Shown here piece by piece: positions 5,294 to 59,481 of a stretch of DNA of 64,000 bases. Location of the stretch: positions 558,001 to 622,000 of the forward strand of contig BCKZ01000014.1 of NCBI GenBank assembly GCA_001600815.1. The letters are read 5' to 3'. Under the pieces are notes generated by a model. The model was not told where the DNA came from. It ran no database searches and was given only the letters and a program-made list of their open reading frames with translations. This stretch comes from Alloascoidea hylecoeti (Eukaryota). The stretch's first letter is position 1. Each line of letters opens with the position of its first letter. The translations under genes and the position numbers were made by a program.

Positions 5294-5602
5294 TTATATT
5301 TTCAAGTTTTTTCAGGTATGGTATCCTATCCTATGTTACTCAGATTNTAGTGTATGTTACCGCCTTGCATCCACATTATTTCCGCACGCTGTAAGTATGT
5401 TGCAATTCGCACGAAGGGAGAGAGAAATCGGCGTGGTTTCATGTTGCATCCCGGGTAACAAAAATCTATTAATAACATACATTTGCTTACTTATTTCTCC
5501 TGATTTTGAAAAACTGTTTTTTTCTTTCCTCACCACCAAAACACATTCGTTCGGATATTCTTTTTCCCTAGTGGCTTTTCGAGACTAAGGAGGATCTGAA
5601 AA

Positions 5603-14255: not shown

Positions 14256-17200
14256 ATGATCTCGAGTACTCCAAAACCTAAGTCCAAGAGATCTAAGCCA
14301 AAGGGCACTCCATCCTCTAGCTTCAAACAACAATCTCTCCTTAATTTCTTTTCCAAAACACCTCAAAAGTCACCAATTGGAAATATATCCTCAAATAAGA
14401 TTCAAACAGGTAAAAAGGATGAGAAAAGGGATCCACCGTCAATTAAGCCTTCTCTCAAAAGGGTTACCGCTAGTAAATCTAACACACTACCCACTATTGT
14501 TCAACGCGTTACTCAGGCCGATGACATGGATACATCATTAGATATAGGTATGCTTAGTTCAGCTCTATTGAAATAAATTAATATACTGACACATTTATAG
14601 ATTCATCTGAAATTTTCTCTCCTGACCGTCCTAAGGACAGTCTTTCTGGCATTGTATCAAGCCCTACTAGAAGAGTATGTATAATTTGACAAGAATACAA
14701 AATAAAATAAAAATTTCTAAGAAATATAAAAGGGACAACGGAAAAAGATATCATATAGTGAGTTGAGTGATGATGAAGAAGAAAATGGCACTAAATCTCA
14801 AGGTATGTTCTTTATTAGGAATTCCCTTGCATAAATCTAATTTTCTACTTTAAATTTATAGTCAAATCTAAAAAAAGGAGAGTAATAGTGGATTCAGACT
14901 CTGAAGATGAATTTACTCTAGAATTGAATGACGCCGATGATTATGACGATGGTAAGAATTAAAAAATTGTTCTATATGATTTTATTCCAGTTATTAACCC
15001 TATTTTAGTATTATCTGATTTTGTGGTTGATGATGACTTTGAGGAAAATAATGGCAATATGGATATCGATCCTGAAGAGGAGAAAGAAGAAATAGTTGAT
15101 ACTAAACCAAATAAAAAGCCTAATAAACCAAAAAATCAAGCAGAAAATCAATCTTTTAACTCTGATAATAAATTATGTGATAAGTTTTCATTAAGCTCAG
15201 CATATATTCCCTCTTCCTCAAGATCCCAGAAAACAAATAAACCTCCAAATAAACCAGTTAAATCTTTCGAGAAAGAGAATGAAAAGAGGTATAAATGGCT
15301 TGTTAATGTTAAGGATGCTGATGAAATACCGGAAGGAGAACCAGGCTATGATCCTAGGACATTATATATTCCACCCTCAGCATGGGGTAAGTTTACAGCC
15401 TTTGAAAAACAGTATTGGGATGTGAAGTCAAAAATGTGGGACAGCGTAGTATTCTTTAAAAAGGGTAAATTCTACGAATTGTATGAACGAGATGCTGACA
15501 TTGCACATAATGAATTTGACTTGAAGTTAGCAGGTGGAGGTCGTGCTAATATGAGATTGGCTGGAATACCTGAAATGAGTTTTGACTACTGGGCGGCATC
15601 ATTTATCGGAAAGGGATATAAAGTTGCAAAGGTAGATCAAAAAGAAACGGCTCTCGCCAAAGAAATGAGAGAAAACAGCAATGGTAAAAAGGAAGATAAG
15701 GTCATCAGAAGAGAACTTAGCTGCGTTCTAACCGCTGGAACATTGACAGATGAATCGATGCTACAAAGTGATTTATCAACATATTGTATTTCAATAAAAG
15801 AAAGTATATCCGAGAATAAAGCTCCGATAATTGCTGCTTGTTTTGTCGATACTGCAACTGGTGCTTTCAGTATATCAGAATTTGAAGATAATCCAGAATA
15901 TACTTACTTTGAGACTCTTATTGCACAATTAAGGCCCCGAGAAGTTCTCCTAGAAAAAAATGAAATTTCATCAAGGGCCGTTAAAATTATTAAAAATAAT
16001 ACTTCTGTAATGACTCTCTGGAATTATTTGAAGCCCGGTACCGAATTTTGGGATCATGAAGTTGCATTCGAACAATTGGTGCGCTCTAAATACTTCCCTG
16101 CTGCAGATTTAGACGATTTATCACAATGGCCAGCTGTGTTGAAAGAAATTACCACCAAACCTTTAGCAATGTCAGCATTCGGTGGGTTACTCTGGTATTT
16201 AAAATCACTAAAGATTGATGAGAATTTAATTTCTTTAGGTAATTTTTCATATCATGATACAATTCATAAAACAACTTCTTTGGTATTAGATGGTCAAACG
16301 TTACAAAATCTGGATATTTTTGTGAATTCATTTGATGGTGGTGACCAAGGAACTCTTTTCCGTTTATTAAATAGATGTATCACCCCTTTTGGAAAACGAC
16401 AATTGAAAAACTGGGTATGTCATCCTTTAATGAACATCGAGCATATAAATCAGCGACTAGATGCTGTCGACAAACTGAACTCTGATGGAATTCTAACTGA
16501 TTTGTTCGAAAATGGCCTTAACAAATTGCCAGACTTAGAAAGAATGTTATCAAGGATACATTCTGGCTTATTGAAAGTCAAAGATTTTATTCTAGTTATC
16601 CAGGGGTTTGAAAAAGTTTATGGAATGATCACCGATGTTAAAAATGAGTATCCTGACTTAGATGGTTTACTAGCTGAGGTTATAAGCGAGATTCCATTAA
16701 CTGAAATTGATATTTCAGAATGGTCAGAAGCCTTTGATAGGCAAAAGGCACTTGAAGACAATGAAATTGTTCCACAGGAAGGTTTTGATTTAGATTATGA
16801 TCAATCATGTATAAAGATGAAAGAAATTGAGTCTGAACTACTTAAGTTACTACGTCAATATCGACGTGAATTCAAGTCACAACAAATTGAATATAAAGAT
16901 AGTGGAAAGGAAATATATTTGATTGAGGTTCCGGTTAAGCTTAAAGGCATCCCTTCGAACTGGAAACAAATGGGTGCCACCGCTAAAGTGAAAAGATATT
17001 GGTCACCTGAAGTAAGTACGCTCGTGAGACAAATATTAGAAGCAAGAGAGATACACAAAACTATCTATGAAAACTTGAAAACAAGAGTATACCAAAGATT
17101 TGATAAATCATATGATACCTGGCTCAAAACTACAAAATGCATCAGTACAATTGACTGTTTACTTAGTTTAGCGAGAACCGCTTCTTCATTAGGAAGTCCT

Positions 17201-19119: not shown

Positions 19120-19426
19120 ACGCGTTAGACTTGTATTTTCATTTTCCGGTGATTTTTAACACGAAATGGACGCGTAATTAGAAACTTAATTTTAGTGAGG
19201 CCCGGAGTTTCACTATTGCCGCTGATTGGTGGGGTTCGCCAAAATGTTACCCGGCCAAATGGGAAAGATTTTGTTTTGTTTCTGACGCGTCTGGATCATA
19301 TCTTGTCACGTTCAAATTATATATAAACTCTTCTTTCCCTTCTTTCTTTCTCTTCATCATCCCTTTTCTCAAAATCTTTTTGAACTAAAATTAAATTCTA
19401 TTGACTCTCAATTATATTAGACGCGT
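19120..19426 (+). promoter_or_regulatory. G1/S-type promoter of RNR2: four MCB boxes, one SCB-like site, one Reb1-type site
   Basis: ACGCGT at 19120, 19170, 19285 and 19421; CACGAAA at 19160; TTACCCGG at 19247; TATA-like TATATAAA near 19320. Confidence 0.75.
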
Positions 19427-19451: not shown

Positions 19452-20666
19452 ATGGCTCCTGTTAATGATACACCATCCAAAATTACTGCTGTTGCACTTG
19501 AAGGTCTTAATTTCGAAGGCACTAAAAGAGATCTCACCGAGCAATTGAGAGCTGTTGCTGCTCAGAAGGATAAGCTTTCTTCTACTGAGAAGGAAGTCAG
19601 TACTATTGATGTTGATGAATCCGAACATCAATTGTTTTTGGCTAAGCATAAGGTTCACAGACATGCTATTAAATCACAAGAGGCCAATGAACCCATTTTA
19701 ATGGAAAATAAAAGAAGATTTGTCCTCTTCCCAATTAAGTTCCACGAGATCTGGCAAATGTATAAAAAGGCTGAAGCATCTTTCTGGACTGCTGAAGAAA
19801 TTGATTTAAGTAAAGATATTGGTGATTGGGAAAATAAGCTTAATAAAGATGAGCGTTTTTTTATTTCACGCGTCTTAGCCTTTTTCGCTGCTTCAGATGG
19901 TATTGTTAACGAAAATTTAGTTGAAAACTTTTCGGCTGAGGTTCAAACACCAGAAGCTAAGTGCTTTTATGGTTTCCAAATCATGATGGAAAATATACAC
20001 TCTGAGACATATTCACTATTAATTGACACATATATTAAAGATTCTAAAGAGCGTGAATTTTTATTCAATGCTATTGAAAATGTTCCTTGTATTAAGAAGA
20101 AGGCAGATTGGGCTTTAAGATGGATTAGTGATAAGGAAGCATTATTTGCTGAACGTCTTGTTGCTTTCGCTGCTGTTGAAGGTATTTTTTTCTCTGGTTC
20201 TTTCGCATCTATTTTCTGGTTAAAAAAGAGAGGTTTAATGCCAGGCCTTACTTTTTCTAATGAATTGATCTGTCGTGATGAAGGTCTTCACACTGATTTT
20301 GCTTGCTTATTATTTTCCCATTTGGAAAATAGACCCGATCCAATTATTGTTGAAAAGATAATTACAGAGGCTGTAACTATTGAGAAGGAATACTTTACAG
20401 ATGCTCTTCCAGCCTCATTACTTGGTATGAATTGCAATTTGATGTGTCAATATGTTGAATATGTTGCCGATCGTCTTTTAGTTGCTCTAGGTAACAAGAA
20501 GATTTACAATGTTACTAATCCATTTGACTTCATGGAGAATATTTCATTAGCTGGTAAGACAAACTTTTTCGAGAAGAGAGTTTCTGATTATCAAAAAGCC
20601 GGTGTTATGGCAGGTGTTAATAAGGCAGATAATGAAGATTCTTTTGCATTTGATGACGATTTCTAA
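19452..20666 (+). CDS. RNR2: Ribonucleotide reductase small subunit
   Basis: [50 protein letters not shown] and a C-terminal FDDDF. First ATG is at 19452; the track start at 19401 is a TTG. Confidence 0.96.
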
Positions 20667-22611: not shown

Positions 22612-23032
22612 TTATTCCGAGATATCAAGACACATTTCCTCCATAACATCCTGGATTCTTATTTTACGCTGATCAGCAATCATATTGATCAACCCCATCG
22701 CAACATCACGTATCTCGTTATATTCATGAAGCAGTCTAACATGTTTCTTCACGACTTCAGCAGCATTCACATCTCTAATATCATGTGTTAGTGGCTTGAA
22801 AAATGCATGTACACTCGATTCATCGAAAGAAACTCAAGCCTACCCTAACTCTTGTTCCAAAGCATTGCAGCTGTTTTGCAGCTCTTCTAATCTCGACTGT
22901 TTTTGTTTGATTCTGGCTTCAATCAGTTCCTAAGACCGTTATTTAGCTTCTATCCCATAGTATCAGTGACGAAAAGAAAAAAAGACTTACTGGAGCTTGG
23001 CGGAGAGATCTGGGGGTTCTGTTGCGATACAT
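22612..23032 (-). CDS. SAE3: Swi5/Sae3-family recombination mediator, 96 aa, three exons (23032-22991, 22929-22844, 22774-22612)
   Basis: Manual splicing gives MYRNRTPRSLRQAP|ELIEARIKQKQSRLEELQNSCNALEQELG|DVNAAEVVKKHVRLLHEYNEIRDVAMGLINMIADQRKIRIQDVMEEMCLDISE*. HxxLLHEYNEIRD is the Swi5/Sae3 signature. Confidence 0.9.
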
Positions 23033-33440: not shown

Positions 33441-33645
33441 TATACTGTTTTAACGGGCTATTTGAGAATAAAATAAGCATTTATCCGGGTAATGTTTAGC
33501 TATATGCACGAATCCACATCTATTCATTTTTCACACAACGTTATTCAAAAATATCAATGATTGGGATTCGTGCATATAGTTAAACATTACCCGGACAAAT
33601 GCTTATATTTTATTCTCAAATACCCAAATCGGAAAAAACAGTATA
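33441..33645. mobile_element. Long inverted repeat, MITE-like/foldback element
   Basis: Arms 33459-33515 and 33564-33622 are reverse complements with 2 mismatches and a 2-nt indel. Outer TATACTGTTTT (33441) pairs with AAAACAGTATA (ending 33645). The repeat is clear; mobility is inferred. Confidence 0.55.
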
Positions 33646-35290: not shown

Positions 35291-35528
35291 GTTAAACTAT
35301 AATCGGAATGAATGAGCTAGAGTATAAAATATATAGCAGCGGGAACTACAAAATAAGAAAAGAGTAGAAAAAGGGGAGCTAGGAATGAGAAATAAGCAAT
35401 GAGGGTTTGCTTGAATTTACAAAATCTCCTATGTGAAGGATGGAAATCTGGTGAGGAAACAATCAAGAGGGTGGGTTTTAAGGAAGTCTGGGTGTAAGAT
35501 TACAAGTATCATTATTATATTATTATTA

Positions 35529-39274: not shown

Positions 39275-39855
39275 ATGTCACTTTCAGTCGGAGGTAAGTG
39301 GTCGTCATAGTTGAGGTTACGATCGATTAAATCCTAACATTTTATCCCGTTTTAGATCAATTCCCAGAAACCAAGTTCCCTTACATTCCTTTCTCGGAAG
39401 AAAACAAAAGCATCGTTGCTTGTGGTTTCCCAATTCCATATAGTACTGCTTCAGATAAAATTGCCGGAAAGACAATTGTCATTGTTTCCGTTCCTGGTGC
39501 ATTCACACCCACCTGTACAGCCAATCATATTCCACCATTTATTCAAAATCAGGAAGAATTAAAGAAGAAAGGTGTTGATGAGGTCCTTGTTTTATCAGCG
39601 AATGATCCTTTTGTTCTAAGTGCTTGGGGTAAGGCATTGGGTAACGAGACAAATTTTATAAAGTTTGTGTCCGATGGTAACGCAGCTTTCTCAAAAAGTG
39701 TAGGATTATCTCTTGATTTGTCTTCCAAGGGATTCGGCTTAAGAAGTGGTAGATATGCTATCATTGTTAAAGATTCTAAGGTTGTTTATGCCAAACAAGA
39801 ACCTGGTGCTGAAGTCACAGTCTCTGGATATGAAGCTGTTCTTGCTGAATTATAA
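39275..39855 (+). CDS. AHP1: Type II peroxiredoxin (Ahp1/Pmp20); intron 39294-39355
   Basis: ATG TCA CTT TCA GTC GGA G|GTAAGT...CTAAC...TAG|AT CAA TTC. The product contains IVACG, VPGAFTPTCTANHIP, NDPFVLSAW and RSGRYAIIV. Confidence 0.92.
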
Positions 39856-46361: not shown

Positions 46362-48194
46362 TCAATAGTTTAATACTGACTTCAGCGTGAATGTCATGAT
46401 AGTAGGAAGTGAGATGATTAACATGCCGTATTCTATTAGGAGTGTAATTGCAACACAATCCAATTCAACATGTGAACTTGGAGGTGAATAAAAAGCAGTG
46501 AGGAACATATTTGTATTCTGTGTAGGAACAGCAGCTGTTAAAACAAGTAAGAATGGTGCCAATCTATTTGTATCTGGAATCCAACCTATATCCATTAACT
46601 TCCTAGCTAAGAGCATGAACATTATGGGAGTTATTATAAGGCGCATTATACTTAAAAGGAGAATTGTTCCATAAAACTTATATGGGAAATCACCTAGTTT
46701 AAGCCTAGCTATAGAAGATCCTAATTGCATGAGCCCCATAGGAACACTAGCTGCACCAACGAAGGATGTTATATCCATCACAAAACTTAATATCGGATTT
46801 CCATCTGGAGCATCTGGAAGTTTTGCAGTCGCTGCATTTGTGAATAGTGCTCTGACCCAGGGTATCATAGTTAATATCAATGCAACAAAAACAGTTAAAC
46901 CAACTGGCTTTGCAAAGTTAGCTAAGAAGAACAATAAACTTTTTTGGATGTTTTGCACAAAATTTCTCTTCTTCTTATGATTATTAGATCCAAACACATC
47001 ATCATCAACATCTATATCTGAATTAACTGGCCTAACAGAAATTGGCTGGATAGCACTATCTGATATAATACTTGTAGATCGTTCAATTTTTAAGTTTAAC
47101 TGTTTAGCATTGAATATTATTTCCGCTTCACTATAAACTCGAACTAAGTCTTTTGTTGTTTCAGCTGATTTACTGTCTTGTTCAACATCANGAGATACCA
47201 TTCTTTTCAAGCCGGCGCTTTTGGAAATGGACTCAATTCTTCGAATTTTCATTGTATTTTCATCATAAGCTAAAGAGCTTACACTGGAGGAAGAATCGTT
47301 GATATTATTAGTCGTAATTTTATGAAAGCTATGGCTGGAACTTTGACCCAAAACAGCTATTTGATCCTCTGTTCTTTCAATATTGGTATCGGATTCTACT
47401 CTCTCTGTGGATTTCAAATGAAAAGAACTTTTTGCTTGATTATCTGCAATTGAGTTTCCAGTACCAGTTTTAACAGCACTCACCTTGGTATTCATGTTAT
47501 GCAAATCTTTATGCTTAACTGTGGAACTGAACATCTTCCATGGCCAGCTGCAGTTAATAAAAGTAACCCAAGTTTTTACACTTAAAATTGGGGTAAAATC
47601 CAGAGGCACTTCATTACATCTAACTTTTTCGGAATCTTGATCTGAAGAGTCTTCTTCGTCCACTGGGTTTAATCTATCTCTGAAGTCATTCTCAACTAAT
47701 CTATAGCCACCCAGATTCCAGAATGTTATCGTTCCAACAACACAATAAATCGAAGCATATGCAATACCTTTATCTGCTTCAGAACTAGTATAAAGTGATG
47801 CATTTGCTAATGATTGTAAATAGGCAACGGGTAAATCACCAGAGTTTGACCATCCTGCTGCGGAAATCATACCCCCATGCCAAGTTTTGGGACCTGGAAA
47901 AAATAAAATAAGAAAGATACCTTGTATTAATCCTATAACTATATTTAATGTGGCACCAAATGCCAAGATACCTATAATTCGAAGATCAGAAGCATCAAGA
48001 GATGTAATTATTTTATTGAAATATAAACATGGCATTAAGCATAATAAAAGTGTTGTAGATATAGCTCTGCCTGTTTCAACTGTAAGAATTTTTCTTTTCG
48101 TCAAAATGAATCCCATACACATATTTAGAAATATTTTGATCACTGGCTTTATAGAAATATAGATTGCTTTTCCTAAAGATAGAGAAGTTGCCAT
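46362..48194 (-). CDS. Auxin efflux carrier (AEC/Mem_trans) family transporter, Ecm3/Ynl095c-like
   Basis: IYISIKPVIKI, WSNSGDLPVAY, a central hydrophilic loop, LPDAPDGNPILSF and GAASVPMGL. One ambiguous base. Confidence 0.85.
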   Translation of the reverse strand: MATSLSLGKAIYISIKPVIKIFLNMCMGFILTKRKILTVETGRAISTTLLLCLMPCLYFNKIITSLDASDLRIIGILAFGATLNIVIGLIQGIFLILFFPGPKTWHGGMISAAGWSNSGDLPVAYLQSLANASLYTSSEADKGIAYASIYCVVGTITFWNLGGYRLVENDFRDRLNPVDEEDSSDQDSEKVRCNEVPLDFTPILSVKTWVTFINCSWPWKMFSSTVKHKDLHNMNTKVSAVKTGTGNSIADNQAKSSFHLKSTERVESDTNIERTEDQIAVLGQSSSHSFHKITTNNINDSSSSVSSLAYDENTMKIRRIESISKSAGLKRMVSXDVEQDSKSAETTKDLVRVYSEAEIIFNAKQLNLKIERSTSIISDSAIQPISVRPVNSDIDVDDDVFGSNNHKKKRNFVQNIQKSLLFFLANFAKPVGLTVFVALILTMIPWVRALFTNAATAKLPDAPDGNPILSFVMDITSFVGAASVPMGLMQLGSSIARLKLGDFPYKFYGTILLLSIMRLIITPIMFMLLARKLMDIGWIPDTNRLAPFLLVLTAAVPTQNTNMFLTAFYSPPSSHVELDCVAITLLIEYGMLIISLPTIMTFTLKSVLNY

Positions 48195-52606: not shown

Positions 52607-53530
52607 TTAAAAATCACAGTTGATATTATATTTTGGTTTACCATCATCACCAAAAACACCCCAATGTTTTTCAACATCAGAAGTACCAGAAGTGTTTGGT
52701 TTCCATTCTTCATCGAAAGCTTCAAAAGCTAAGATATTGATACCCCAAGCACGTAAGGAGCAAATACCCTCTTGCCAGAAAGTCTGGGCATTTGAAGTAG
52801 AAGGATAAGAAGCTTCAAAGTTTGTACCATCAGTTGGCCATCCGGTTTCACCGACCCAAAATGTAATATCAGTAGAACCTTTGGCTGTCTGAATTGTTTG
52901 AAGTGCTTGCATTGTATCATCTAAGAATGAATATGAGGAGTTTTGCATGGTTTGTCCTTGCCAGTATGAAAAAGCATTAGATAAAACGATATCTGATGCT
53001 TGAATAACAGGTGTTGCGTAGCCATCAACAAGAATATTCCATGAATCAACTGTACCAACTGGCACACCAGAAAATGAATTACCATCTTTATCCTTAATAT
53101 TTTTAATAAAATCACGAATGTTATTGATTTTATCAGCAAGCTCTTGAGGAGTCAAATCTTTTCTATACAAAGCTTCAGAACCAACGAGTACTGCTTGAAC
53201 GTTTGAAGTTGATAATAATGGTAAATAACTGGACAAAGCATTTTTTTCATCGTTAAAATGAGCATCATCATTTGGCCATACACCAACAAATAATTTAAAA
53301 CCTGCTTCTTGAACTGCTGGAGCAATATTTTGTAAAGTGTTACAATCAGAAGAAGCATATACTTTTACTGTTGTAGCATAAGATTTCAAAATATTGAAAT
53401 CGTTTAAATAATCATTTGTGGTTTTGCATTGACCAGAATTAGTTTTAACACCAAGGTTAAATCCAAGAGATCCAGCCGCTAATGCTTGGGAAGCAAGTCC
53501 TAAAATAGATAAAGAAGATAGAAGTTTCAT
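52607..53530 (-). CDS. BGL2: Cell-wall endo-beta-1,3-glucanase/glucanosyltransferase (GH17)
   Basis: Starts at MKLLSSL (ATG 53530). LGFNLGVK, VGSEALYR, NAFSYWQG, WVGETGWP and FEAFDEEWKP. Confidence 0.95.
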   Translation of the reverse strand: MKLLSSLSILGLASQALAAGSLGFNLGVKTNSGQCKTTNDYLNDFNILKSYATTVKVYASSDCNTLQNIAPAVQEAGFKLFVGVWPNDDAHFNDEKNALSSYLPLLSTSNVQAVLVGSEALYRKDLTPQELADKINNIRDFIKNIKDKDGNSFSGVPVGTVDSWNILVDGYATPVIQASDIVLSNAFSYWQGQTMQNSSYSFLDDTMQALQTIQTAKGSTDITFWVGETGWPTDGTNFEASYPSTSNAQTFWQEGICSLRAWGINILAFEAFDEEWKPNTSGTSDVEKHWGVFGDDGKPKYNINCDF

Positions 53531-53777
53531 TTTTCGTGCTGATTTTCCAATAAAAGAATACTTAACAAAGAGTGAACGATGAAAGAACAAGAGGAATGGA
53601 AAAGATCTCGACGGGAAAAAGACACAGTGGTAAAAATAGATCCATAGCAAACTTTTAAAAACATCCGGACATCGTAAACAGTCGTAAAAAGTCGTAAACC
53701 TTATTATGCATAAAACATTAAACAATCCCTACAAATATGTGGAATATGGCAATTGCTCACCCGATGGAGAATTTGCG

Positions 53778-53812
53778 CACGTGACACAACATGGGTCTAG
53801 ATGTCCGGGTAA
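53778..53812. promoter_or_regulatory. Cbf1-type CACGTGAC and Reb1-type CCGGGTAA in the BGL2/GLC8 divergent promoter
   Basis: Exact matches at 53778 and 53805. Confidence 0.55.
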
Positions 53813-53891
53813 ACTGATGAGTAGTTTCTCTCCAACTCCTGAAATCAAACGATTACAACAAAACGACTAAGTTTGATTTTATTTCAAAAAG

Positions 53892-54572
53892 ATGGATGAA
53901 CATGAAGAACAACCAGTAAAAGGAATTCTCAGAAATGCTCCTCCTCCCGGTTCGTACGATAAGCAGGTTCTTGCAGACTATGATAGAAAAAAGGTTCTAG
54001 AAAATACAATGGCAAATGCTCAATTAACTACCGAACAAAGACAGAAAATATTAGAAAGGAAGCAAAGATTAGAAGATAAGATAAATAAAGCATTGAATAG
54101 AGGACCGGGCGGCGCCAATTCGGGAACTAGCAGTGGTAATGTGACAAATAACATTCATGTCCCCAGAGATGCCAATGGCAATGGTGAAGAAGACTCCCAT
54201 TTGCAATGGGATGAAGCAAAACTTTATTTGACAGATCAAGAAAAGGCAATTTATACAATGAAGATTTCCGAGCCAAAAACTCCTTATCAAGGAGGGGTTG
54301 ATCCGACAAACGATTATTATAGATCCGATAATGAAAGTGATGTTGAAGGATTTTCATTGGGAGAACCTGAATTCGTGGTGCCAGCAGCTAAATTGGTCGA
54401 AAGTAAAGAAGAAGATGAGTCGGAGGAATCCTCACAAGAGGAGGAACATGTATTAACACCGGAGGAGAAACATAAAAAATTTGAGGAAATGAGGAAAGCT
54501 CATTATCATATGAAGGGTGCGGTTCTGAAAGGACACGTTCCGTTGGCCGAAGAATACGAAGAAGAACAATGA
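53892..54572 (+). CDS. GLC8: Protein phosphatase 1 inhibitor-2 homolog
   Basis: KGILR (SILK-type), LQWDE, MKISEPKTPY and FEEMRKAHY. Confidence 0.9.
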   Translation: MDEHEEQPVKGILRNAPPPGSYDKQVLADYDRKKVLENTMANAQLTTEQRQKILERKQRLEDKINKALNRGPGGANSGTSSGNVTNNIHVPRDANGNGEEDSHLQWDEAKLYLTDQEKAIYTMKISEPKTPYQGGVDPTNDYYRSDNESDVEGFSLGEPEFVVPAAKLVESKEEDESEESSQEEEHVLTPEEKHKKFEEMRKAHYHMKGAVLKGHVPLAEEYEEEQ

Positions 54573-54838
54573 TACATTATAAATTATGATTATAAGAGAT
54601 TTAAATAATGAGTCTAGAATAGTAAGAGAACCCTCAGGTCGGATTATGTAATTATATCCTAATAATATGAAATGGCGTGAGGCGTTACCCTCACTTAGCT
54701 AATGTCTCCGCATAAAGGCCTCTTTACTTCGGCCTAATTAAAATCCGATGTTTTTCCAAATCGAGAGGTAAGCACCTGCTACGGACTTCCCGTTAACGTT
54801 AACGCTGCTGCCGAATTACAGTCACAAATGTCCGCCGT

Positions 54839-54936
54839 CCGGGTAAGCAGGCGGTGCCCGAAATACCCAGTTTGAGAAGGTATGCTTCCCAAATAGGCTT
54901 AGCATGATTAGCTGCAGTTTTTTTTTCCTATAAATA
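54839..54936 (+). promoter_or_regulatory. Orphan promoter: Reb1-type site, poly(T), TATA box
   Basis: CCGGGTAA at 54839-54846, a T run near 54918-54926 and TATAAATA at 54929-54936, inside a GC-rich island with no long ORF downstream. Confidence 0.55.
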
Positions 54937-55351
54937 AGTGGCCTCCCCTCCTATTTTCCTCGTCGCCACTTTTTTTTTCGACACCTCATCACAACTCTTC
55001 TATTTTTGCATGTTTCAAACTAACAGTCTATCAGTTACTTGATAGTCACGTCTTTTATAGTCGTACCCACCTCTCCTAGTGTTTCGCCGTCCCTCTCAAC
55101 GTTAAGTAATTATCTCAGGCCATAGGTGGTCCTTTTTCATGCCATGTTAGATACATTTACAAGTACATTCAGATGTTTTCGTGTTCATTCAGTATATATC
55201 TCTTAAACTTTCAGGAATAGTTTCCTATACCAGTGCCGCTCAAGACTTCAATACCAACTTGGAATACGTCTTCGACTAACACCCGGTTTCAGCGTAGCAT
55301 AACCGCGAACCGTTTAAGTCAAATAATTACAAATATTTTTTTATCCGATAA

Positions 55352-55703
55352 ATGAAATCAATAAATATATCTCACATCTTGATCCTGGATTACTTTTTCT
55401 TAAATATGGTTTCTGAATATCACAACAACCCCGTTCAACTACCCAGTTTGATTTCACAATACTTATGTCTTTTTCTAGTATTTACTGTATGGTGGCATTG
55501 TCGGTAAGTGATCCCTTCATTAACTCTTTCTAGGAATAAAATAAAATAGGTAATCAGTCCAATTATTATCGATCTCCATTTACATTTTACAGTTTATTAC
55601 AATGGTAGTATATCCATTGCTTCGCAGTTTGCTTTTCTGTTTGGCCTTTGAGTCCAGTTCTGCTCGAATTTTATATCCAACCAAGTCTTACACAGTAAGT
55701 TAA
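55352..55703 (+). other. Cluster of overlapping micro-ORFs (51/33 aa ending VFTVWWHCR; 22 aa; 33 aa)
   Basis: 55352 or 55406 to 55507: (MKSINISHILILDYFFLN)MVSEYHNNPVQLPSLISQYLCLFLVFTVWWHCR*. 55465-55533: MSFSSIYCMVALSVSDPFINSF*. 55602-55703: MVVYPLLRSLLFCLAFESSSARILYPTKSYTVS*. Confidence 0.4.
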
Positions 55704-57216
55704 TATTTCACGGGTGCAATAAAGTTAATTATAAATTCTCGCCTATAATACTTTAAAAACATGATGATGGAAAGGAGAGGTTTGTAATACCTGTTAACGA
55801 AGTAAAACCGCAAATTTATAAATTAAATGATAATTTTTTTAAATAAAATTAAATAATGTTTGATGATACAGTTTGTTTTGATACGAAATGGTAATGAATT
55901 ATGATAAGGTTTTTTTGATAGTTAAGCTTGTTGCTTTTAATTGGTTATGGGGATTTTGAATTTGATTATGATGCTTATGATTGATTGTATATCTATGTTT
56001 TGGATGACTTTTTCTAGATTCTGGTTTTTGGTTATTTAGTTTTTAGGTATGTTTCTTTTTTATTTGCTTTGTGATGAGGTTTTTTTTGTTTCTCTTATGA
56101 GGAACTTGACTCAAGTGGGAAGGATCCTGCTTGGGTGAAGTTTTTATAAAGTTTAAGCAAAATATTCATCACTGTGAATAAAACAGCTACATGTATCAGT
56201 CTTATGCAGAGAGCATGTTATTTTATTTTTTGTGTTGTATTAAATCTGCTTATTAGTTATTTAATTATACCTATTGTCCTCCTGTAGAAACTTAATTGTT
56301 ATAATTAGGCCTGACCTATATTAATTGCGTGAGCTGATTCTCATAATCAGGCTGCAGCAGTATATTTGTAAAGCAGCTAGCTATGTCATAATTAATAGTA
56401 AGTTTTTTTTTAAGGACAAACAAATAAAATTAGAAGTGAGTATTTATTAACACTGATTTATTCTGAATTATATAGATAAACACAGTCTCTTTGATAGAGA
56501 TGAGCCTAAATTGGGGTATTTGATGGTCATTGTCTCCGGAACCTGCATCATAAATCCATAACGATCTTAAATTTAACGGTCAGTTTGTAATTTTATTACC
56601 CGAGATTTAGTAGAGAAATAATGTTCCTAATTAGTTAACATCATTTTAAATCTTAACACAAACTCATATTCTATCTAAGAATACGGAAAGAGCTAGAAGC
56701 TAGACAACTACAACTAGCTACTTATGTACTCTTTGACTCTATTTCTAATAAATACTTTTTTTTAGCTACAATCTATACTTCATATACTTTTAATTTATTA
56801 TACCTATGAACTTTCGCTTAAAATCTAACCAATTTGAGAATATTTCAACTGTAAGTGGACCAAATGAGCATTATATTATATAGCAATCACTATACTGAGC
56901 AGAAGTTTTACTGAATTTATTAGACCACATATGCATGTTTAAGTTCAAGGTAATTATTAATCTTTGAATTAACTCATATTAGTCGTATGAAACTTTTAAT
57001 GCTTTGTTTGCATCTAAATTTATAAATTTGTGTTTCAGTTACAATTGAGTTAAAACCTTTAAAAAATGTCATATAAAACTTTATTCTTATTTTTATCAAT
57101 CGCGATCGCGAGTTTCACAATGATTTAGTATCGCAGCCGTATAATACCCTTGTCATCGTATATTTCTATATATAATCCATTTCCCCATGTGATTTCCCTA
57201 ATTATTAACATAAATA

Positions 57217-57863
57217 ATGAAATATAACTTGAAAGAAGTTTTCACTAATTCCGACAATATTAGCTGGGGACAGCAACTTATTCTTTGGACTAATGCTTGT
57301 GCAAGAATTATAGAATTTGTTTTATCAATTGTTGCCATTGGTCTTTGTTGTGGCTCTTTTATATATTATAGTCCGACTGTTGTGATTTTTGGGTGAGAAT
57401 AATTCACGATATACAGTATACAGTACTATTAATAATATAATTAACACAAAATTATAGTACAATTTGCGCAATATCTTCCTTATTGGGTGCAATATTGGGG
57501 TTTTTATCAAATTTTATATGGCTATTATCTCATCCGTTATTACAACTGATCCCAGATGTACTTATTTCAATCAGTAATTATCTCGGGGGTATTTTAGCTG
57601 CCGTTTATTTTAATGCATACTGTACAGTAGCACTTGAAGAGGTTCGTTTGAATGATAGATTATATTCAAGGACAAAAAGTGGTTGCAGAATCGGTAAAGC
57701 TTTAGCTACTTTTTTAATTTTATTGGGTATTTGTTATAATATTTCAACTCTCATTTCTGGTATTAGAGTTTATAAAAATGGGCCTTTTACTCCAAAAAAT
57801 TTGAAGAAGCGTAAAAATTTAGACATAAATCACGATTTAGAAGCATCGACTGAGCATACCTAA
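57217..57863 (+). CDS. Four-TM MARVEL/Nce102-like membrane protein, paralog 1; intron 57393-57457
   Basis: MKYNLKEVFTNSD...RIIEFVLSIVAIGLCCG...VIFG|TICAISSLLG...GCRIGKALATFLILLG. The intron joins the exons in frame. Family call is tentative. Confidence 0.7.
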
Positions 57864-58723: not shown

Positions 58724-59481
58724 ATGACGTATAATTGGAAAGAAGTTTTCACCAATTCCAACAATCTCAATTTGGGAAAGAAACTTGTTCTTTGGTCCGA
58801 TATTTGTTTAAGAATAATAGAATTTGTTTTATCAATAGTTACAGTTGGTCTTTGTTGTGGTTGTCTTGCTTATTATACTACAACTGCTGTAGTTTGTGGG
58901 TAAGAATTAATTTATAGTTTTACAACACCATTAGTACCTAAACAAGATATATATATAGTACAGCTGGTGCATTACTGTCTTTAATTCCAGGTGCAATATT
59001 TGGGTTTTTATCAAATTTTATAAGACCATTTTCTCATCCATTATTACGATTGATCTCAGATATACTTAGTTCACTCAGCTGTTATATTGGAGGTATTTTG
59101 ACCGCTGTTTATTTTACTGCCGATTGTACAGTAACACTTGATAAGATTTATATAAATGATAAATGGTATTCAAGGACAAAAACTGATAATGGTTGCAGAA
59201 TAGGTAAAGCAATAGCTGTTATTTTCATTTTATTGGGGATTTGTTATAATATTTCAACTCTCATTTCTGGTGTTAGGGTCTATAAAGATGGGCCTTTTAA
59301 TCCAAAAGGTTTGAAACATGGTACAAAGTTAGTTGTTAATAATCAAATTGAAGACATAGAAGCACCAAATAACATTAATAACACTCAAGATAATGAACCT
59401 GAAAATGTTGATCTTTCGTTTGAACACAATGAATCAAACGTCAACATTTATCGTAACTTAATAGAGTACTGGAGATTATGA
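58724..59481 (+). CDS. Four-TM MARVEL/Nce102-like membrane protein, paralog 2; intron 58900-58958
   Basis: MTYNWKEVFTNSN...RIIEFVLSIVTVGLCCG...VVCG|TAGALLSL...GCRIGKAIAVIFILLG. Same intron position and phase as paralog 1. Confidence 0.7.

Follow-up and report, generated by a model that had tools for sequence, protein, structure and literature searches.

SRG1 of S. cerevisiae, a case of regulatory non-coding transcription, has a strong TATA promoter and yields an RNA that lacks ORFs, made upstream of a protein gene in tandem, an arrangement like that proposed for the locus described here. The unusually long tandem intergenic region NPL3-GPI17 contains an Rnt1-type hairpin that serves as a fail-safe terminator (PMC2779338). 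According to the account in PMC13183374, an AGNN tetraloop, with AGGA as a canonical form, is the chief determinant for recognition by Rnt1, which cuts at -14 and +16. The same source describes how Rnt1 removes the 3' extensions of pre-U1, U2, U4, U5 and U3, triggering termination, and how many pre-snoRNAs are processed at their 5' ends at Rnt1 hairpins. The telomerase RNAs of Hansenula polymorpha (HpTER; PMC3851723) and Schizosaccharomyces (TER1; PMC4299874), whose 3' ends are formed by the spliceosome, are described as ORF-free Pol II units of ~0.7-1 kb in which a consensus 5' splice site lies within 16-27 nt past a weak Sm-like site.

We analyzed a 2.6-kb gap downstream of GLC8, one that annotation pipelines would leave empty, in a 64-kb window (the whole stretch of DNA under study). 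As at NPL3-GPI17 (PMC2779338), the genes here stand in tandem, the region between them is unusually long, and an AGNN hairpin lies past A/T-rich poly(A)-type signals. However, the hairpin here follows an apparent non-coding unit with its own promoter rather than a protein gene, it is far longer (56 bp) with two more hairpins ahead of it, and its cleavage is predicted. Like the genes of the pre-snRNAs and pre-U3 of PMC13183374, the locus resembles a non-coding Pol II gene that has a TATA promoter and, past a U-rich Sm-like sequence, an AGNN hairpin, whereas it has no Rfam snRNA or U3 match, an unstructured body and no strict Sm site. The telomerase RNA features listed above have apparent counterparts here, but the possible templates are no more than candidates, neither a pseudoknot nor a three-way junction was found, and the folding energy is not in excess.

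Results

The first-pass annotation of this DNA had described a G/T-rich, 3'-UTR-like tail at the end of the unit. The G/T richness held (GC skew of +0.59 and AT skew as low as -0.52 over 55860-56150), but the tail proved to be of a different nature, as it folds into three plus-strand hairpins between 55938 and 56193 (Table 1). Together H1 and H2 fold at -26.7 kcal/mol (z -5.35), a value equalled by 0 of 200 shuffles, and the 120-nt segment 55940-56059 scored z -3.7 on the plus strand and -0.6 on the minus strand.

Table 1. Features of the region downstream of GLC8, in window positions.
Feature	Coordinates	Strand	Basis or remark
Reb1-type motif CCGGGTAA	54839-54846	+	5' of the putative non-coding unit
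T9 run, then TATAAATA	54918-54926; 54929-54936	+	sequence reading
C-containing pyrimidine-rich block	54937-55017	+	putative 5' leader and start-site region
Candidate non-coding transcript body	54990-55860	+	both ends inferred; no stop-free frame over 55 aa, unstructured
Sole RNA-library-supported stretch	55514-55679	not known	one 166-nt contig
Hairpin H1	55938-55987	+	apical part carries relaxed Sm-like GAUUUUGA at 55952
Hairpin H2	55989-56050	+	folding
Hairpin H3	56048-56193	+	146 nt, 56 bp (10 G.U), AGGA tetraloop 56121-56124
Micro-ORF, 10 aa	from 55010	+	ORF list
Micro-ORF, 20 aa	55144-55206	+	ORF list
Micro-ORF, 51 aa	55352-55507	+	ORF list
Micro-ORF, 22 aa	55465-55533	+	ORF list
Micro-ORF, 33 aa	55602-55703	+	ORF list

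The third hairpin, an RNase III-type structure that had been overlooked in the earlier reading, is the most informative feature of the region. H3 folds at -53.0 kcal/mol on the plus strand (z -7.53) and at -27.3 kcal/mol on the minus strand (z -3.64), where the energy is halved because 10 of the pairs are G.U. This computed structure and strand specificity point to selection on a plus-strand RNA rather than to a DNA palindrome. When both strands of the 64 kb were scanned, H3 was the only AGNN-capped stem of at least 13 bp; in stability it ranked third among ~2,550 strand-windows, the top two being the two strands of a palindrome at 33451-33600. The AGGA loop is closed by 12 consecutive pairs and is retained in the centroid structure. 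Below these 12 bp lie one unpaired position per strand (56108/56137) and 8 more bp, so that the helix spans the -14/+16 positions. H3 is predicted to be cut by Rnt1, near 56107 and 56140, and to act as a terminator. Folding found the DNA downstream of H3 to be unstructured.

At the other end of the unit, the first-pass annotation had listed a Reb1-type site, a poly(T) run, TATAAATA and a pyrimidine-rich leader, and all of these were present as listed. The window carries 9 copies of CCGGGTAA, 18-fold more than the 0.49 expected; 0 of 100 shuffles reached this number, and the copies fall mostly in 5' regions. For five of the 8 other sites (5451, 14138, 19247, 36166 and 53805) a long-ORF ATG follows 87-262 nt downstream; 2-3 of the 8 (33485/33587, 46201) have no long-ORF ATG adjacent. 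A second T9 run is found at 54970-54978, and TATAAAT, with 5 copies on the plus strand of 54600-57250, is not above chance. The order of motif, T-rich tract, TATA and CT-rich leader recurs upstream of the gene at 19452.

Within 54918-55017 the pyrimidine block has a pyrimidine share of 77% and a C share of 37% along 71 nt, more than chance. The similar non-genic blocks at 19296-19399 and, on the minus strand, 53552-53641 are sense-strand leaders of the 19452 gene and a glucanase gene, 22-80 nt ahead of the annotated ATGs. The first ATG of the unit sits within the leader block and opens just 10 codons, which is atypical of these comparison blocks and counts against the unit favored below. No other intergenic run with GC of at least 36% in the window is as long as that at 54583-55369, which is more than chance would give and extends ~380 nt beyond the TATA element. 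The earlier claim of a dedicated plus-strand promoter is thus upheld by the CCGGGTAA enrichment and by a pyrimidine block akin to the leaders of two annotated genes, and from these sequence features the Reb1-type site, T-tract and TATA would act as a promoter.

On the downstream side, the next protein gene begins at 57217 and has its own TATA-like element, as had been noted before (TATATATAA at 57167). Downstream gene A has ~210 nt of upstream sequence in common with a paralogue, and its own upstream region begins at ~57000. A long 5' UTR of gene A was rejected because these ~210 nt are paralogue-shared and conservation there does not include the candidate acceptor. Metagenomes gave 13 loci that carry a GLC8 relative; at 31-44% identity they are too distant, and they have nothing in common with the orphan region.

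We also weighed the view that this is an ordinary long intergenic region without a dedicated unit, with the one RNA contig found (described below) being transcriptional noise; behind GLC8 the Reb1 site and T-tract would then act as a roadblock or a nucleosome-free boundary, and the hairpin as a fail-safe terminator for GLC8 read-through. We consider this unlikely, though deserving of real weight. The window has many intergenic gaps of 1-2 kb, TATAAAT is frequent in its A/T-rich DNA, the CCGGGTAA sites named above have no long-ORF ATG beside them in 2-3 of 8 cases, and the RNA evidence is minimal. However, the ordered motif, T9, TATA and CT-rich block is the same as that of a bona fide promoter in the window, and the GC-rich run continues well past the TATA element. 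H3 also lies 1.5 kb from the GLC8 stop, past A/T-rich stretches at 54580-54660 that could serve GLC8.

The putative transcript body is poor in G (13.8%, with 19.4% C) and, with fold z-scores of 0.0 to +1.8, unstructured. It includes an A/T-rich stretch with AATAAA/TATAAA-type signals at 55700-55860. Among three listed sequencing runs, one contains part of the stretch (share 0.07), and the uncovered parts are uninformative. That run, X1, a wood-decay metatranscriptome, yielded a 166-nt contig that lies inside the predicted unit with 0 differences at a depth of 4.5; it has no contig on GLC8, downstream gene A or the hairpin, and such uncovered parts are likewise uninformative. The match in run X2 (35 nt, 5 differences) was discarded as A/T-rich chance, and run X3 had none. 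The single contig could represent one or few fragments, or library DNA. The unit had been called highly expressed, a description that RNA support limited to this contig from one metatranscriptome does not bear out.

The Rfam comparison proposed in the first-pass annotation found no family: covariance models gave 0 matches at gathering score in the 64 kb. Among spliceosomal snRNAs, U3, RNase P/MRP, SRP RNA and known snoRNAs, the best sub-threshold score was 21.4 bits, where the cut-off is 87. On both strands, motifs resembling SRP, RNase P or MRP RNA were rejected because Rfam gave them no support, and short resemblances to snR30 and to U2/U5 were dropped as they had no ACA box or model match.

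The template of a telomerase RNA is complementary to ~1.3-1.5 telomere repeats, and the conserved core fold of such RNAs comprises a pseudoknot and a three-way junction. We regard it as improbable that the locus encodes a stable Sm-class RNA of ~0.7-1.05 kb, most plausibly the telomerase RNA of the host yeast, with a 3' end formed past a weak Sm-like site by RNase III (H3) or by spliceosomal cleavage (GUAAGU at 55695 or GUAUGU at 56047). In favor of such an RNA, the predicted Pol II unit has a TATA box, is free of ORFs and falls in no Rfam family; TER1 of the Candida parapsilosis group was found via comparison with C. albicans TER1, Rfam being of no use according to PMC5033589. GTA[AT]GT occurs 5 times on the plus strand and 0 times on the minus strand, against 1.7 expected (p 0.03), and the X1 contig stops at 55679, within an A/U-rich Sm-like stretch and 16 nt ahead of GUAAGU. 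By the account in PMC3851723, mature HpTER ends at 680/689 nt, ahead of a 5' splice site at 690, and has a non-canonical Sm site without the exact AU5-6GPu consensus, and in fission-yeast relatives 5' splice sites are placed 14-27 nt beyond the mature telomerase RNA end (PMC4299874). Rnt1 sites are used by pre-snRNAs (PMC13183374), and the relaxed Sm-like GAUUUUGA and, at 56024, GUUUUUGG stand directly ahead of H2/H3.

Against a telomerase RNA, the body has no excess stability over shuffles, with z at +4.0 across 54990-56030 and at +1.4 across 54990-55680, its G content is low, and a strict AU5-6GR Sm site is absent from both strands. Repeat-ended candidate templates on both strands (78 direct repeats of at least 4 nt) were at about the chance level by a rough estimate, and neither element of the core fold was identified. 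A full-text literature search with pieces of one candidate telomere repeat returned unrelated primers only. We are equally doubtful of the specific version in which an Sm-class RNA of ~1 kb acquires its 3' end by RNase III at the AGGA hairpin, by neither the Nrd1-Nab3 nor the spliceosomal route known from other fungal telomerase RNAs. If the RNA were a telomerase RNA, this would be a third route of 3'-end formation for fungal telomerase RNA.

As the first-pass annotation had reported, the unit holds only short ORFs; all of the listed micro-ORFs are present (Table 1), and there is no normal protein gene. Within 54990-55860 no stop-free frame exceeds 55 aa. Codon log-odds in the region peak at 4.9 (86.8 for GLC8), with micro-ORFs scoring no better than other intergenic frames, and a Pfam search with 42 frames gave no match. 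A homologue search with the 51-aa ORF against 1.84 billion representatives returned one spurious match to a translated tandem repeat, and searches with 49-aa and 42-aa frames found nothing. Exhaustive joining of donors and acceptors gave low-complexity products only, of at most 95 aa. The hydrophobic character of the micro-ORFs stems from the T/G-rich composition. The suggestion that the unit encodes small hydrophobic peptides therefore falls to noise-level codon scores, no Pfam match and no credible homologue for the three frames searched, and the microprotein reading is not supported.

These coding tests bear on two further alternatives. It is quite improbable that the locus is the relic of a formerly highly expressed protein gene, with promoter and leader remaining and a coding region decayed to micro-ORFs. 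The promoter and leader are like those of expressed protein genes, GC is raised at 54990-55370, and the frame 55214-55279 consists mostly of C/T-ending codons with a stop at its end; the Pfam, homologue and codon results all count against a relic, and a strand-specific AGNN hairpin would be left unexplained by a decayed gene. An mRNA for one or more microproteins, possibly spliced, is a shade more remote. ACTAAC branch-like motifs on the plus strand at 55018 and 55273, each with an AG 11-14 nt on, several plus-strand donor-like sites, and the A at -3 of the 33-aa ORF at 55602, which overlaps the RNA contig, would suit such an mRNA, and a 51-aa product results when exons 54748-54767, 55035-55105 and 55214-55279 are spliced in frame. 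This three-exon model was chosen post hoc, however, and would make the whole promoter module intronic, and the codon scores, the lack of homologues for the three frames searched, bar the spurious tandem-repeat match, and the low-complexity joins oppose any model of this kind.

Box C/D snoRNAs have C and D boxes 60-130 nt apart and a terminal stem, and box H/ACA snoRNAs have the order hairpin, ANANNA, hairpin, ACA. A snoRNA precursor or non-coding snoRNA host gene, with H3 for 5'-end or spacer processing, would fit the Rnt1 processing of pre-snoRNAs (PMC13183374) and the non-coding mono- or polycistronic host transcripts described for most snoRNAs of CTG-clade yeasts (PMC5033589), but is highly unlikely given that no Rfam snoRNA family attains half its gathering score, that none of four C-box matches is suitably spaced from a CUGA D box, whichever strand is read, that a rough scan (its script unvalidated on a known snoRNA) gave 0 H/ACA candidates on either strand, and that the DNA past H3 is unstructured.

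Several other candidates were rejected. A solo LTR or repeat has no second copy within the window. For a minus-strand gene there were 3 loose donor sites only, 67 spliced models of which none reached 60 aa, and no promoter features. The GC-rich island 54660-54926, taken as a Pol III gene terminated by the T9 run, gave z +0.48 and no Rfam match. Nrd1/Nab3 motifs of an NNS terminator were not enriched, which also counts against the favored unit.

Discussion

We favor an independent Pol II non-coding unit on the plus strand, ended or insulated by an Rnt1-type hairpin, and put its chances at about even. A regulatory or long non-coding RNA, one of the classes originally proposed, stays the best class, with coding signal absent.

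The promoter would be opened by the Reb1-type site, T-tract and TATA box at 54839-54936, with transcription starting within or just past the pyrimidine-rich block, at ~54970-55020. A G-poor, unstructured RNA body without coding capacity would follow. Its 3' ends may form either at the A/T-rich stretch with AATAAA/TATAAA-type signals or, on read-through, in the hairpin module. There the AGGA-capped stem would be cut by Rnt1, and the exonuclease Rat1 would enter at the cut and terminate the polymerase, as at S. cerevisiae snRNA genes and between NPL3 and GPI17. The tandem genes downstream, which have a promoter of their own from ~57000 on, may be shielded in this way. We infer Rnt1 cleavage and termination, and likewise any regulatory role, be it through the RNA itself or through its transcription.

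Unlike SRG1, the unit here seems to stop ~0.8-1 kb short of the promoter of the next gene and has a strong terminator hairpin. The early stop and the hairpin speak for insulation and against SRG1-type interference.

The T/G-rich micro-ORFs of such a region are not to be taken for microproteins. If the favored reading is true, this non-model yeast would have here a non-coding RNA that is driven by a promoter and carries a textbook RNase III signal, and the locus would provide a compact natural case of polyadenylation-independent termination and tandem-gene insulation outside S. cerevisiae.

Genomic setting and promoter features

The gap between GLC8 and gene A, the next protein gene, spans 2.6 kb (54573-57216) and is the largest between long ORFs in the window, but it is no outlier because spacings of 1-2 kb are common. 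The window resembles a budding-yeast chromosome; it is A/T-rich (GC 34% in genic and 30% in intergenic DNA), and its longest intergenic run at a GC content of at least 36% lies at 54583-55369. Gene A and its tandem paralogue have non-consensus intron donors (GTGAGA and GTAAGA). The two genes also resemble each other upstream, from about 210 nt ahead of the ATG (BLAST, 69% over 116 bp); the promoter region common to both begins at about 57000 for gene A. A single N, at 5347, lies in intergenic DNA upstream of the 5603 gene.

Coordinates of features at and around the locus, with fold z scores against shuffled sequence
Feature	Position	Strand	Basis or value
GH17-type glucanase ORF, neighbour of GLC8	52607-53530	-	long-ORF listing
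GLC8	53892-54572	+	long-ORF listing
Tandem paralogous two-exon membrane-protein genes	57217-57863 and 58724-59481	+	3' of the gap
ACTAAC motifs	55018, 55273	+	
Body span	54995-55337	+	z 0.00
Body span	54990-55700	+	z +1.20
Body span	55400-55720	+	z +1.76
Body span	54990-56030	+	z +4.0 (30 shuffles)
Hairpin H1	55938-55987	+	folding
Hairpin H2	55989-56050	+	folding
Hairpin H3	56048-56193	+	folding

The Reb1-type motif CCGGGTAA, present at the locus at 54839-54846, has 9 copies in 64 kb where 0.49 would be expected; none of 100 shuffles reached 9. Five of the eight other sites (5451, 14138, 19247, 36166 and 53805) lie 87-262 nt upstream of a long-ORF ATG, a pair at 33485/33587 belongs to a palindrome and is 345-447 nt upstream of an ORF of 97 aa, and 46201 has no listed start nearby. 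This last site, another CCGGGTAA copy without an evident gene, lies 160 nt beyond the 46362-48194 (-) ORF on its 3' side, and the next start is 1.15 kb away.

TATAAAT is by itself uninformative, because there are five + strand copies in 54600-57250. Pyrimidine-rich blocks of 70 nt with at least 25% C are rare, comprising 54918-55017 and four other non-genic blocks. Two of these four form the sense-strand leaders of the 19452 gene and the glucanase, 22-80 nt ahead of the annotated ATGs; a third, 14719-14788 (-), overlaps frames on the + strand that the codon score marks as apparently coding. We infer that the fourth, 35305-35411 (-), leads into an unlisted 67-aa frame whose codon score is positive and whose ATG follows 15 nt after the block ends. 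The order of motif, T-tract, TATA and CT-rich leader is identical at the locus and the 19452 promoter. Every sequence element listed in the first-pass annotation was found in its place, though they are unequal in weight, and the putative + strand-directed promoter is the best-supported element of the whole finding.

Coding potential

No stop-free frame in 54573-57216 exceeds 55 aa on either strand, and the longest ATG ORF is 51 aa. With codon log-odds scoring, for which the long ORFs of the window served as the training set, we obtained 86.8 for GLC8 vs a maximum of 4.9 anywhere in this interval. A Pfam search of 42 stop-to-stop frames gave nothing near any cut-off, only seven weak rows (E 0.044-0.21, at most 14 bits). 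The 51-aa ORF had one match among 1.84 billion representatives, which we do not count as a relative because the matched protein is a translated tandem repeat, aligned in nine weak stretches. The 49-aa frame that holds a 33-aa ORF and the 42-aa frame at 55151-55276 gave zero candidates in a word-based search that is weak for queries so short. Joining all donor- and acceptor-like sites into spliced models (1,768 on the + strand, 67 on the -) yielded at most 95 aa, all products being low-complexity. A three-exon 51-aa model built by eye is in frame, yet it places the entire promoter within an intron, and we disbelieve it. The locus is very probably not the candidate microprotein gene that had been proposed; its micro-ORFs look hydrophobic because the DNA is T/G-rich.

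The codon score also flags unlisted coding frames elsewhere. By far the highest among "intergenic" frames is a 174-aa stop-to-stop frame at 39331-39852 (+), scoring 62.3; it lacks an ATG ORF of at least 90 aa and therefore probably belongs to a gene that has an intron upstream; its product may be a peroxiredoxin-type protein. Positive scores at 14730-14959 (+) (9.0 and 7.3) and 22615-22833 (-) (16.3) suggest unlisted exons or small genes.

A + strand hairpin module

The stretch earlier described as a G/T-rich, 3'-UTR-like tail is present, but it folds as three + strand hairpins, and a sliding scan of the locus placed strong + strand structure at 55940-56200 only. H1 and H2 together reach -26.7 kcal/mol (z -5.35), with a minimum-energy structure that makes up 22% of the ensemble. 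H3, of 146 nt, has 56 pairs including 10 G.U; its + strand folds at -53.0 kcal/mol (z -7.53, 0 of 200 shuffles as good), and the - strand of the region reaches just -27.3 kcal/mol (z -3.64). As a decaying DNA palindrome is expected to lose pairs equally on either strand, this asymmetry points to selection acting on RNA from the + strand. Of some 2,550 strand-windows (150 nt each), only both strands of a true palindrome, 33451-33600, exceed H3 in stability. That near-perfect palindrome contains two CCGGGTAA motifs in inverted orientation, 33485 (+) and 33587 (-), and nothing in the window folds more stably than its two strands (-62.6 and -60.3 kcal/mol).

The apical loop of H3 is AGGA (56121-56124), which sits on 12 uninterrupted pairs. 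When both strands of the window were scanned for AGNN loops on long stems, the H3 stem came out at 20 pairs with no more than 2 mismatches; no other exceeded 12 pairs.

Putative RNA body and transcript evidence

The putative body, from 54990 to about 55860 on the + strand, contains 13.8% G and 19.4% C and folds no better than shuffled sequence in four spans (z 0.00 to +4.0). There are 5 consensus hexamers for 5' splice sites on the + strand, where 1.7 would be expected (p 0.03), and none on the -; Nrd1/Nab3 motifs are not enriched at the locus.

RNA libraries comprised three runs, all belonging to a single wood-decay metatranscriptome study; one run contains 7% of the sampled words. Comparison of 53600-57700 with that run returned one 166-nt contig, 55514-55679, without differences, at a depth of 4.5 that could represent very few fragments, and DNA carry-over is a possible source. 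Contigs are strandless, and none covers GLC8 or gene A in the same run. The 55514-55679 contig lies within the predicted unit, its end 16 nt short of GUAAGU (55695).

Rfam gave nothing at gathering score across the whole window, and five permissive sub-region searches gave matches only far under cut-off. No tRNA was found, C-box matches at the locus lack a partner D box, and a rough scan with our own script gave no H/ACA candidates.

To our knowledge, telomerase RNA is the sole well-known Pol II, ORF-free fungal RNA of roughly 1 kb that Rfam would miss. One point in favor is that about 680-700 nt separate the inferred start from an Sm-like stretch rich in A/U, from the end of the contig (55679) and from GUAAGU (55695). 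Also counted in favor are the 3'-end layout of H. polymorpha telomerase RNA, whose mature forms end at 680/689 nt, whose Sm site is non-canonical and in which position 690 is a 5' splice site (PMC3851723), and the spacing in fission-yeast relatives, whose splice site lies 14-27 nt beyond the mature end (PMC4299874). Against this, the body lacks excess folding and is very low in G, no strict Sm site was found at the locus, and template-like direct repeats occur on both strands (78 of at least 4 nt, about the chance number by our own estimate). We consider it quite improbable that the locus encodes telomerase RNA.

Predicted RNase III-type processing and termination

PMC13183374 describes the AGNN tetraloop as the main determinant of recognition by Rnt1 (yeast RNase III), counts AGGA among canonical loops, and places the cuts 14 nt away on the 5' side of the loop and 16 nt away on its 3' side. 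It also describes Rnt1 removal of the 3' extensions of pre-U1, U2, U4, U5 and pre-U3, accompanied by Rat1-driven termination, and 5' processing of many pre-snoRNAs at Rnt1 sites. At NPL3-GPI17, an unusually long tandem intergenic region, an AGNN hairpin terminates polymerases that miss the poly(A) site (PMC2779338). The locus shares that layout: the promoter is followed by the RNA body, by A/T-rich DNA (55700-55860, with AATAAA/TATAAA-type words, 5' of the hairpin module), by the hairpin and, about 0.8 kb on, by gene A's own promoter. The locus is real, and its structure is richer than the first-pass annotation saw; it most likely comprises a promoter-driven non-coding transcript with a predicted RNase III-type 3' processing/termination module.
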